Source of the DNA: Eledone cirrhosa
Taxonomy: Eukaryota
Assembly (NCBI GenBank): GCA_964016885.1
Contig: OZ024752.1
Coordinates: 47,988,001 to 48,052,000, forward strand
Reading direction: 5' to 3'
Length of the DNA stretch: 64,000 nt
Position numbers and translations under genes: made by a program. The stretch's first letter is position 1. Every line of letters begins with the position of its first letter. Below are positions 28,773 through 30,662 of this stretch, piece by piece. The notes below the pieces were generated by a model that was not told where the DNA came from, ran no database searches, and saw only the letters and a list, made by a program, of their open reading frames with translations.

Positions 28773-28827
28773 ACTGCTATATATATTTCAGTGACAGCCA
28801 TCTTTGGCTGTGACCTCTTCAGGCAGT
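28773..28827 (-). ncRNA. Type I hammerhead ribozyme
   Basis: Minus strand: ACTGC CTGAAGA GGTcACAGCCA-AAGA-TGGCTGTcACT GAAA T-ATAT-A TA GCAGT, then AATAAA. Stem I is perfect and the core is intact. Confidence 0.8.
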
Positions 28828-29184
28828 TTGAATTAGTATGGTATAGACAAGTACATATGTTGTTTAGGTGTATGATATTGTCAATACTCTGATATGCCCA
28901 GTTCCTTGTTGGGTTGTTAATTCACTGGGGAACTGGTCATTCTGTGTATATATATATATATATATATACACATATACACATATATATATATGTATATATA
29001 TATATACATATGTATATATATATATATATATACACATGTGTATATATATATATATATACACATATATACACACATATATATATGCATATATATATATATA
29101 TATATATATATATATATATATATATATATATATATATATATATATATAAAGAAGAAATTAAAAGATGGTTAAAAGAGTTCCATA

Positions 29185-29254
29185 TATTTTATTATGCGCA
29201 TTTCGAATACAAAATCATCCTGGCACAAAAATTGTGTTCTCATCAGATAAAATA
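29185..29254 (-). ncRNA. Type I hammerhead ribozyme
   Basis: Minus strand: TATTTTAT CTGATGA GAAcACAA..loop..TTGTaTTC GAAA T-GCGC-A TA ATAAAATA; 8-bp stem I, G10.1-C11.1 pair, palindromic GCGC loop. Confidence 0.82.
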
Positions 29255-29676
29255 AGGTAACATGATATGAGGCATAATAGCACTTGTTTACCGGAAAGTG
29301 CTAAGTCAATATATATATATATATATTCTTACATGAATATATATTAGGCTTCTACATAAACTGGAAACATTCTCCCAAACTTGTAGAAAACTTATAATGA
29401 AACAATTGTTTGGAAAGAGAGATATACTTTAACTTTAATTATATCTCATAAAATAATACAACTGGTTTTTCCACATTATACATATTGTTAGCACCCCAAA
29501 CACTTAAATTGGGTCTATATTTTAATATAACCTAATGTTTGTTGAGTGAGATGGTTACCAGTCAGAGTTTAGCTTTAAACTATCTCTGTTATTGTATTAA
29601 TTATATATATATATATATATATATATTACAAAATAACAGGAGGCATGTTCTGATGAAAATCCTTGAAAGGTTTATT

Positions 29677-29734
29677 TTACTATGATCATTTCAATGACCG
29701 GGTTCAGTATGAATCTGGTGACATCATCAGGTAA
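29677..29734 (-). ncRNA. Type I hammerhead ribozyme
   Basis: Minus strand: TTAC CTGATGA TGTcACCAGATTCA-TAC-TGAACCCGGTcATT GAAA T-GATC-A TA GTAA, then AATAAA. Confidence 0.68.
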
Positions 29735-30124
29735 TTCAAAATATAACGAAGGAATATATCAGATAAAAATCCTTGGTGTTTAAATCAGAGACAAGAGGGT
29801 GGCCGGTATTTTAGCGACTTGTATCTGCGTCGGACCACACAGAATGACCAGTTCTATCCAGGGGTGAACCAACAAACCCAAATAAATATATATATATATA
29901 TATAACTCTGTGGTTTCTATTGATTCACTGGTGGTGAATGGTCCTGTCTTATAAAGTATCTGAAACTATGATCTCAAGAAGGACAGCTGATAAGCGAAAT
30001 TTGTCCATGCCATTACAATCCCTATATGTATATATAGAGAGAGATTTTAATTCACATATCCATTGTAAGCTGACTGTGGAGGTCTATATTTTGGATATGT
30101 CACTATCTTATACATCAAATATTG

Positions 30125-30184
30125 TATTTTATCTGATGAAAGCATACTATAATTTAGTATCCTTGAAATACGTATAATAAGATA
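30125..30184 (+). ncRNA. Type I hammerhead ribozyme
   Basis: TATTTTAT CTGATGA AAGcATACTA-TAATT-TAGTATcCTT GAAA T-ACGT-A TA ATAAGATA. Confidence 0.8.
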
Positions 30185-30321
30185 AATATGATGCTATAGT
30201 GATATTTTCCATTTATTACTATTGTTAATATATAGATAGATATAGATATATAAACACACACATACATGTATATATATATATATATACATATATGCATACA
30301 TGTACATATGTATCATCAAAA

Positions 30322-30445
30322 TCATCATCATCATCATTTTACATCCACTTTTCCCTACTTGCAAGGGGTGGGACGGGTCCTATTCAGCACAGCATCTTTC
30401 CACTTGTCTCGGTCCTTTGTGATCTCCTCCGTGACCTTCAGCGAT
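30322..30445 (-). mobile_element. 3' end of the same RTE family as 12507-13231
   Basis: Aligns to 12530-12650. Confidence 0.85.
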
Positions 30446-30591
30446 GTATGTATATATATACATGTATATATATATATATATATATATATATGTATATATA
30501 TATATATATATATATATATATATATATATATATATATATATATATATATATATAATATATAAGATCAAAAGATGATTAAAAGAGTTCCAAG

Positions 30592-30662
30592 TATTTTATT
30601 ATGCGCATTTCAAAAACAAATATTATCATGGGATTATACCTGCGTTCTCATCAGATAAAATA
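30592..30662 (-). ncRNA. Type I hammerhead ribozyme (paralogue of 29185-29254)
   Basis: Minus strand: TATTTTAT CTGATGA GAAcGCAGGTAT..ATATTTGTtTTT GAAA T-GCGC-A TA ATAAAATA; the flanks also match 29160-29290. Confidence 0.72.

Follow-up and report, generated by a model that had tools for sequence, protein, structure and literature searches.

Hammerhead ribozyme motifs clustered in a fuzzy intron of Eledone cirrhosa as probable truncated ends of Hydra-clade Penelope-like elements

The window considered here is a 64,000-nucleotide stretch of the octopod Eledone cirrhosa (GenBank assembly GCA_964016885.1, contig OZ024752.1, positions 47,988,001 to 48,052,000, forward strand) in which five hammerhead ribozyme motifs lie within 1.9 kb. 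These motifs are very probably the hammerheads of the 5'-truncated 3' ends of four families of Penelope-like elements (PLEs) of the Hydra clade, which sit in (TA)n tracts of a giant intron of the gene fuzzy, were likely inserted singly by target-primed reverse transcription and are predicted to cut RNA only as dimers. Judged from their sequence, the islands that carry the motifs are truncated pseudo-long terminal repeats (pLTRs) of new octopod Hydra families, a kind of element that is already known, and the five-motif cluster itself is an ordinary transposon pile-up. The interest beyond the cluster lies in the density of hammerheads in the genome, in intact young elements, in a family without an open reading frame (ORF) and in a repeated hairpin. 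The motifs, lettered by sequence family, are as follows.

28773-28827, minus strand: type I hammerhead A; palindrome AUAUAUAU; predicted cut between 28778 and 28777
29185-29254, minus strand: type I hammerhead B1; palindrome AUGCGCAU; predicted cut between 29193 and 29192
29677-29734, minus strand: type I hammerhead C; palindrome AUGAUCAU; U.U at the base of stem II; predicted cut between 29681 and 29680
30125-30184, plus strand: type I hammerhead D; palindrome AUACGUAU; predicted cut between 30176 and 30177
30592-30662, minus strand: type I hammerhead B2; palindrome AUGCGCAU; predicted cut between 30600 and 30599; dimer-compatible with B1

A descriptor scan for type I hammerheads recovered all five motifs that the first-pass annotation of this DNA had reported, motif C by a relaxed scan only, which it requires because its stem II opens with a U.U. 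Each motif runs in the order CUGANGA, stem II, GAAA, a 6-nt palindrome, UA and the closing stem I, with the CUGANGA, GAAA and UH of the core correctly spaced and AUA as the triplet in all five. The palindromes are TATATA in A, TGCGCA in B1 and B2, TGATCA in C and TACGTA in D, and once A15.1 and U16.1 are included the entire helix III is a perfect 8-nt palindrome. Stem I is 5, 8, 4, 8 and 8 bp long in A, B1, C, D and B2, the fourth pair of stem II is a C mismatch in every motif of the window, and the G10.1-C11.1 pair is G-C in one of the five. The earlier statement that the helices differ in sequence yet pair is borne out, with stem I at 4-8 bp and stem II made of several pair types around one kept mismatch, as is the statement that AATAAA adjoins or overlaps the 3' stem I in four motifs, D being the exception.

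It might be supposed that such motifs are chance matches in AT-rich sequence, and the Rfam hammerhead models, by which the first-pass annotation had proposed to check them, gave no match in the window at the gathering threshold, nor even at E<=10, where 87 matches, mostly to microRNA models, included no hammerhead. Against this, 2,000 block dinucleotide shuffles of 28601-30800 gave a mean of 0 and a maximum of 0 motifs where five are observed, the maximum in the same shuffles being one when the palindrome condition was relaxed, so that the equal frequency in shuffled sequence that would have told against the motifs was not seen. A search of the whole 3.0-Gb assembly with the pattern CTGANGADNDCN{14,40}YGAAATNNNNATA gave 109,014 matches against 25 for the reversed pattern used as control, or one motif per 27.5 kb (36 per Mb), in a count where inverted pairs are counted twice and a few places matched at two lengths; the family B pattern alone gave 20,956 matches against 0. 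There is also covariation between families, together with a constant location in the 3' ends of the elements, and the chance reading is so improbable that it can be regarded as already refuted.

The covariation was followed in 185 distinct motifs from the collected loci, a set in which neither the palindrome nor stem II pairing was required, and which is weighted to the searched families and represents copies rather than events. Pairs 2, 3, 5, 6 and 7 of stem II are kept in 175-181 of the 185 by several pair types, which is not the lack of covariation that had been named as grounds for abandoning the motifs. The fourth pair is paired in only 5, with C.C in 102, C.U in 38 and C.A in 33, and the G10.1-C11.1 position is G-C in 44, A-U in 67, G-U in 41 and U.U in 26. 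The palindrome between GAAA and UH is perfect in 126 of the 185, or 167 counting G-U, whilst its sequence varies among motifs (TGCGCA, TATATA, TATGTA, TGATCA). These motifs resemble the hammerheads of PLE pLTRs described in PMC4209133, which are of type I with a short palindromic helix III, are found mostly as single copies of truncated PLEs, and occur as several families per genome, with some inverted pairs 100-700 bp apart and with predicted dimers. They differ in that the G10.1-C11.1 pair is not conserved here (44/185) and in their number, ~2,000-9,000 per genome being reported there against 109,014 here, counts made with different descriptors and so not strictly comparable.

That the five motifs belong to four sequence families, as had been claimed, is upheld because only B1 and B2 are alike (75% identity), the remaining pairs at 51-57% being near the ~49-51% of shuffled sequence. 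The islands and the tracts about them are listed below, with locus numbers given where a particular copy is meant.

28611-28723, no strand: (TA)n-rich tract at the A 3' end
28727-28937, minus strand: family A Hydra pLTR 3' end, 5'-truncated, short 3' end in (TA)n; 209/209 identical to the L256 pLTR; 26 candidates scored
28947-29148, no strand: (TA)n tract separating A and B1
29149-29304, minus strand: family B (B1) Hydra pLTR 3' end, 5'-truncated; nearest copy 98.7%; 91.7% to the pLTR at L157, a locus with a 647-aa frame for reverse transcriptase (RT) and endonuclease (EN)
29602-29626, no strand: (TA)12 tract at the C 3' end
29627-29832, minus strand: family C pLTR 3' end, whose parent reads as an ORF-less ~2.1-kb unit with Hydra-type ends; tandem copies at L347/L348, 2,077 bp apart
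29833-29887, plus strand: final ~55 nt of the family C tail in inverted orientation, attached at the 5' truncation; an inverted PLE insertion
30041-30229, plus strand: family D Hydra pLTR 3' end, 5'-truncated; 92-96% to pLTRs downstream of RT/EN fragments (L117, L123)
30228-30293, no strand: (TA)n-rich tract at the D 3' end
30447-30561, no strand: (TA)n tract at the B2 short 3' end
30562-30723, minus strand: family B (B2) Hydra pLTR 3' end, 5'-truncated; 94% to the L161 pLTR (715-aa frame) and 86% to the L159 pLTR (790-aa frame)
30724-30761, plus strand: inverted last ~38 nt of the B2 tail, joined to the minus-strand short-end copy
30762-31603, no strand: (TA)n-rich tract at the B2 tail end

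It had been proposed that each motif sits in its own island between (TA)n tracts, and this stands in so far as tracts flank the islands, whereas islands C and B2 include an inverted piece of tail and other repeats are present at 29345-29600 and 30321-30442. The B2 and C islands are each a small inverted insertion, in which a minus-strand short-end copy is joined to a plus-strand piece of the tail, its last 38 nt in B2 and its last 55 nt in C. All the islands are young, at 95.7-100% identity to other genomic copies. Older interspersed repeats lie between and beside them at 29345-29600 and 30918-30989, with 71-80% and 82-96% identity to other loci.

Every island represents the terminal 150-210 nt of a family that is dispersed in the genome, and a first look gave at least 1,518 genomic candidates for B1, at least 26 for A, at least 1,481 for C and at least 2,209 for D, with at most 40 of each scored. 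The copies have (TA)n at the end, a 5' truncation point that varies and often an inverted partner on the 5' side, and their 3' ends form two peaks beyond the predicted cut site, a short end at a distance of ~40-60 nt and a tail end at ~130-200 nt. For three of the families the parent element can be recognised upstream. In family A the locus whose pLTR is identical to the window island (L256) has an uninterrupted frame of 894 aa and another (L257) a frame of 893 aa, in which RT is followed by a GIY-YIG endonuclease at the C-terminus in a single ORF with the motifs RWK, DKT, MGS, YRDD, CxCX5C, YIG, CxxC-E and CxH; fragments of family A match Pfam PF01541 (GIY-YIG) at E=2.4e-4, below the cut-off. 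Family B has frames of up to 790 aa upstream of its pLTRs, with DKT, YRDD and CxCX5C and with RWI or RWT at the position of RWK, and a Pfam scan of its long frames gave no match. The frames of A and B alike have the CxCX5C linker, no CCHH, CxxC before E and CxH after N. In family D fragments of RT and endonuclease occur in order upstream of the pLTRs at 5 distinct places, the CxCX5C linker being present. The elements are ~4.1 kb (A) and ~3.7 kb (B) long, and tails are 90-140 nt.

A single frame of RT with a C-terminal GIY-YIG domain, RWK, DKT, CxCX5C and the lack of CCHH are the diagnostic features of the Hydra clade (PMC8557442), and families A, B and D are assigned to it by such features, D by its RT and endonuclease fragments and the linker. 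The clade, which includes Hydra-1_Obim of Octopus bimaculoides, is also like the present elements in CxxC and CxH, in its (TA)n targets, in a type I hammerhead near the 3' end, and in 5' truncation, inverted partners and a tail (PMC8557442); Hydra-1_Obim is itself given in the supplement of that paper with a (TA)n preference and a 3' hammerhead. Compared by eye, its protein resembles that of family A, and the insertion traits of Hydra are all present here, namely (TA)n targets, a hammerhead in the 3' pLTR, and inverted and partial-tandem copies with a tail. The hammerhead of Hydra-1_Obim is different, having another sequence and a 9-nt helix III region (PMC8557442, supplement S2), and the elements of this genome depart from it in their 8-nt palindromic helix III, the C mismatch of stem II, lengths of 3.7-4.1 kb, tails of 90-140 nt and an ORF-less 2.1-kb family. 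The view taken in the first-pass annotation, that the motifs belong to Penelope-like terminal repeats of several families and are hammerheads of type I, is supported, and the longer parents with RT and GIY-YIG domains that it proposed to look for were found for A, B and D but not for C. A further Hydra family was seen with a 927-aa frame holding RWK and DRT (L260:2063-2345, L240, L243, L245), whose 3' end has a hammerhead-like fold with the non-standard core CUUGAGA replacing CUGANGA and the palindrome ACGUACGU.

Family C is of a different kind. Its tandem copies include L347 and L348, which are spaced 2,077 bp apart and joined tail to body, and to all appearances the family is an ORF-less unit of ~2.1 kb with short and tail ends of the Hydra type, which may be mobilised in trans. 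A tblastn search with the family A protein gave 0 matches in 30 family C body loci, which also contain no frame with the CxCX5C linker, and three Hydra proteins used as queries on 40 family C pLTR loci gave a single match, which belongs to another family. A GIY-YIG frame 4.9 kb upstream of one C pLTR (L119) was considered as the parent and rejected, since the family it comes from is a different one that has a 3' end of its own. In the upstream flanks of L334-L363 many copies have a ~200-nt repeat resembling short interspersed nuclear elements, often in tandem, at an identical position in the family C leader.

It is here that the other suggestion of the first-pass annotation, that the region holds a diverse population of short ribozyme-bearing retroelements, has to be weighed. 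Non-LTR retrozymes are ORF-less units of 150-450 nt which are transcribed in tandem, cleave themselves and circularise, and they are like the present islands in being non-coding and PLE-related, with type I hammerheads in very large numbers, 126,247 in axolotl (PMC7229834; 10.64898/2026.07.22.740005). The short palindromic helix III, the absence of an ORF from the islands and the very high copy number are all as expected of retrozymes, and family C both lacks an ORF and is found in tandem. However, the islands are single, different from one another and variably truncated, with no head-to-tail repeats of 150-450 nt, which is the arrangement of the retrozymes described in those sources, the copies here being scattered, truncated pieces of long elements. 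In A, B and D the sequence leads on to RT-EN frames, and the unit of C is ~2.1 kb with ends of the Hydra type; a parent without coding capacity is found for C only. That the islands are retrozymes is therefore very improbable and for A, B and D largely refuted, and rather than short retroelements the islands are the truncated ends of autonomous elements of 3.7-4.1 kb (A, B), of the RT/EN-linked family D and of the ~2.1-kb family C.

How truncated Hydra ends of this kind would arise is suggested by the ends themselves. Copies stop in (TA)n at the short or the tail end, often with an inverted 5' partner, and where a short end is read through, which was possible in part of 143 short-end anchors (76 ran into TA), a hairpin closed by ACTC/GAGT follows in all 46 that show the motif. 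At tail ends read through in tandem copies a GCTC/GAGC hairpin is found in 10 of the 11 that show it (105 anchors; families A, B and C). The hairpin lies at an offset of 6 nt at both ends of A and at the short end of C, of 7 nt at the tail end of B, and of 9-14 nt from the anchors where TA-like letters blur the end of the element. In the Poseidon element PAc of Anolis two RT start sites delimit the tail (PMC11167929), and because of these the hairpin behind both 3' ends may set where reverse transcription starts. Following the in vitro work on Poseidon (PMC11167929), the endonuclease would nick AT-rich DNA and RT would start within the RNA at two points; copies would be short where RT stops early, and the inverted pieces of tail in B2 and C would come from priming at the other nick. 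A hairpin closed by RCUC/GAGY some 6 nt behind each end would position the RT.

Poseidon PAc (PMC11167929) shares with the present elements the two internal RT starts that bound the tail, the nicking of AT-rich DNA, and a hammerhead that is unneeded for insertion, with uncut RNA as template; it differs in belonging to another clade, in a tail of 30-40 nt and in its AC-rich stem-loop. The consulted portion of that paper, the nearest account found, makes no mention of a covarying hairpin that is repeated behind both starts, nor was one found elsewhere in the open literature searched. Text similar to the hairpin is seen, by eye only, in the leader of Hydra-1_Obim and in the 3' end of Hydra-2_Amil. 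A separate hairpin lies 75-160 nt upstream of the cut site in A (28895-28936), B1 (29281-29303) and D (30047-30098), the window copies being truncated at it or just past it; it may be a site where RT stops, and search bias could contribute to its appearance.

The place of the ribozyme in this process is best approached through the palindrome. In folding of single motifs the probability of the 2-bp helix III is at most 0.086, whilst homodimers form the 8-bp helix III, and for D and B2 the minimum-energy fold is a double hammerhead. A lone copy is predicted to lack its 2-bp helix III, and two copies of the same family, as in a tandem parent RNA, to form an 8-bp one, so that the ribozymes are predicted from folding to cut RNA only as dimers. 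The hammerhead lies within ~120 nt of the short end, and nearly all truncated copies would retain it; 109,000 motifs would then be expected even without selection by the host, since nearly every truncated copy keeps one. No build-up of the 5' ends of copies was seen at the cut site, with 3 of 248 aligned copies starting within 3 nt of it in a sample biased to loci found via intact motifs, and this is consistent with uncut or re-joined RNA serving as the template.

Alternatively, the monomer might be the chief working form of the ribozymes, held stable either through a tertiary contact made by the C mismatch in stem II or by a protein of the element, and might trim the parent RNA to unit length. 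The C mismatch at the fourth pair is kept across families (5/185 paired), which suggests that it matters for the structure, in axolotl a hammerhead whose helix III has 2 bp shows 22% cleavage as a monomer in 1 h (PMC7229834), and the Poseidon hammerhead is assisted by protein (PMC11167929). However, the palindrome is kept despite its changing sequence, for which a monomer has no need, and cut RNA is rarely the template, to judge from the same biased sample of 248 copies. Action as a monomer is considered unlikely, and cutting by dimers is preferred.

As to the clustering, all the families would target (TA)n and leave (TA)n on both sides, so that copies would pile up, and PLEs are reported to insert into or beside existing copies (PMC6765202). 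A motif of a different family was found within 1.5 kb of an index motif in 25 cases against 12.3 expected for all motifs (113 loci, 14 of 127 having been dropped for want of an exact index match); 30 unselected C1 loci had no different-family neighbour within 1.5 kb. With uniform density the expected number of five-motif runs in 1.9 kb is 0.1, rising to 1.5-7 with a 2-3-fold local enrichment, and these figures together with the very high copy number make the cluster a tail event of insertion into a shared target. The 864 kb around the window hold two four-motif clusters in addition to the five-motif one. The two lie in fuzzy introns at G000:C12:47,898,025-47,898,898 and 48,312,460-48,313,149, each within 0.9 kb, and are partly inverted pairs.

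At 36 per Mb this is the densest hammerhead load among those found reported, although descriptors differ between the counts. Axolotl has 126,247 type I motifs (PMC7229834) in 28.21 Gb (10.64898/2026.07.22.740005), or ~4.5 per Mb, Xenopus has ~9,000 hammerheads (PMC4209133) and the giant squid 235 Rfam hammerhead matches (PMC6962438), all of these having been obtained with different descriptors and so not being strictly comparable. No octopod hammerhead count was found in the open literature, a search to which subscription papers, Repbase and Dfam were external. The repeat annotation of O. vulgaris (PMC13282606) reports Penelope families as recently active, and its main text contains neither the word ribozyme nor the word Hydra.

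Several points weigh against the account given so far. The elements of families A and B, at ~4.1 and ~3.7 kb, exceed the <3 kb given for Hydra (PMC8557442), and tails of 90-140 nt compare with 30-40 nt as described. No coding parent of family C was present in 40 pLTR loci or 30 body loci. The minimum-energy fold of the A, B1 and C homodimers is not a full double hammerhead. The covariation of the hairpin comes from 11 tail-end junctions in 3 families, 8 of them from C, whilst 75 of the 105 tail-end anchors led into TA and a further 19 into different sequence. Lastly, unless insertion is locally enriched 2-3-fold, not even a few cases of five independent insertions within 1.9 kb are to be expected in a genome.

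The first-pass annotation had also raised the possibility that, were the region intronic, the ribozymes could cleave a host transcript. The first part of this is correct, since eight collinear fuzzy exon blocks with AG/GT ends, running from 48.494 to 47.269 Mb of C12 on the minus strand, place the window within a single intron.

1-64000, minus strand: whole window, within a 502,134-nt phase-0 intron of fuzzy (FUZ), G000:C12:47,556,395-48,058,528, from exon-block evidence

An exon 6.5 kb to the right of the window encodes Fuz_longin_2 (E=3e-10, the 1 match in a Pfam scan of 70 of the 232 candidate non-repeat frames in 264 kb), and a nearby exon is 91% identical to fuzzy of Argonauta hians. The gene spans >1.22 Mb with introns of ~436, 502 and 230 kb. 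An intact intronless retrocopy with a 426-aa frame is also present on the minus strand at G000:C2:78,425,305-78,426,582 (L264:1501-2778); it is 80-90% identical to the C12 gene per exon, with no stop in the compared blocks of either, and because the ratio of non-synonymous to synonymous substitution (dN/dS) is 0.12 the pair is taken to have been under purifying selection.

Four of the five window motifs are in sense orientation to fuzzy, and it could be argued that sense hammerheads, chiefly B1 and B2 as a double hammerhead, cut the fuzzy pre-mRNA, releasing a 1,407-nt fragment or attenuating the gene. Among the minus-strand neighbours only B1 and B2 are fully cross-compatible, sharing an 8-nt palindrome (-10.5 kcal/mol) and having 8-bp cross-pairing stem I arms, and they are the only sense pair on the same strand with the same palindrome within 5 kb in the 864 kb. 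A sense AATAAA lies at the cut site in four motifs, and the intact intronless retrocopy could buffer loss of the gene. Against action on the host, 52 motifs in fuzzy introns divide into 27 sense and 25 antisense (p=0.89), those with an intact stem I and palindrome into 22 and 22, and all motifs in the window's own intron into 17 and 15, in a small sample that covers 864 kb of the >1.22-Mb span and in a gene on which selection may be relaxed by the retrocopy. Being 95.7-100% identical to others, the copies are young, so that the motifs are not conserved elements of the host, and the B2-B1 cofold minimum has helix III but not both stems I and II. The hammerheads of metazoan PLEs cleave weakly even as dimers (PMC4209133), and that of Poseidon, dispensable for insertion, required the PLE protein for cleavage (PMC11167929).

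As sense motifs are not depleted, hammerhead cleavage of the host transcript looks unimportant, and a role of the cluster in cutting fuzzy RNA is quite improbable; host cleavage, possible in principle with four sense motifs, finds no echo in strand bias, and lone motifs are predicted to be without helix III. Cutting inside an intron need not block splicing. Avoidance of introns is reported for Xenopus in a preprint (10.64898/2026.07.22.740005), whereas the fuzzy introns here are without strand bias.

The role of the hammerhead in PLEs and the origin of tails and inverted copies are given as open questions in PMC8557442 and PMC11167929. For these the genome offers intact elements of 894 aa, ~10^5 insertion products of natural origin and, as a candidate signal for the start of RT, a hairpin in which one base change is compensated by another, and the 27 sense motifs without depletion in 864 kb of intron of a gene under purifying selection set a bound on ribozyme activity in host RNA. 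A wider proposal is made tentatively, the odds being somewhat against it as a whole. Hydra elements would carry one RT-positioning hairpin twice, as ACUC/GAGU behind the short end and GCUC/GAGC behind the tail end, each ~6 nt downstream, and two uses of one signal would account for the tail signature of PLEs. An octopod genome with apparently current elements would be a natural system in which to ask why PLEs keep a ribozyme, and dimerisation coded by the palindrome would limit cutting to copies of the same family, sparing host pre-mRNA save where two matching copies meet, as B1 and B2 do.

More hammerhead-like motifs, of other families, lie elsewhere in the window at 16439-16514 and 16337-16369, both on the minus strand, the former with an AUC triplet and the same stem II C.C mismatch as in the five motifs. 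An inverted pair at 18915-18955 (minus) and 18993-19023 (plus) is hammerhead-like with a short stem II, a CAATTG palindrome and a 10-nt helix III region, and probably represents another PLE family. At 18609-18820 is a very common repeat like a miniature inverted-repeat transposable element, with a long perfect inverted repeat and TA flanks, which was contained in a query with 174 matches among the collected loci. Fragments of the 3' end of a long interspersed nuclear element, with (ATC)n tails, are found at 12545-13255 (minus), 30321-30442 (minus) and 34372-34671 (plus); these had no Pfam match and are taken, by their resemblance, to be of the RTE type. Finally there are two homogeneous minisatellites, one at 8609-12479 with a 27-bp unit repeated 143 times (98% matches) and one at 6325-7344 with a 60-bp unit repeated 17 times (97%).

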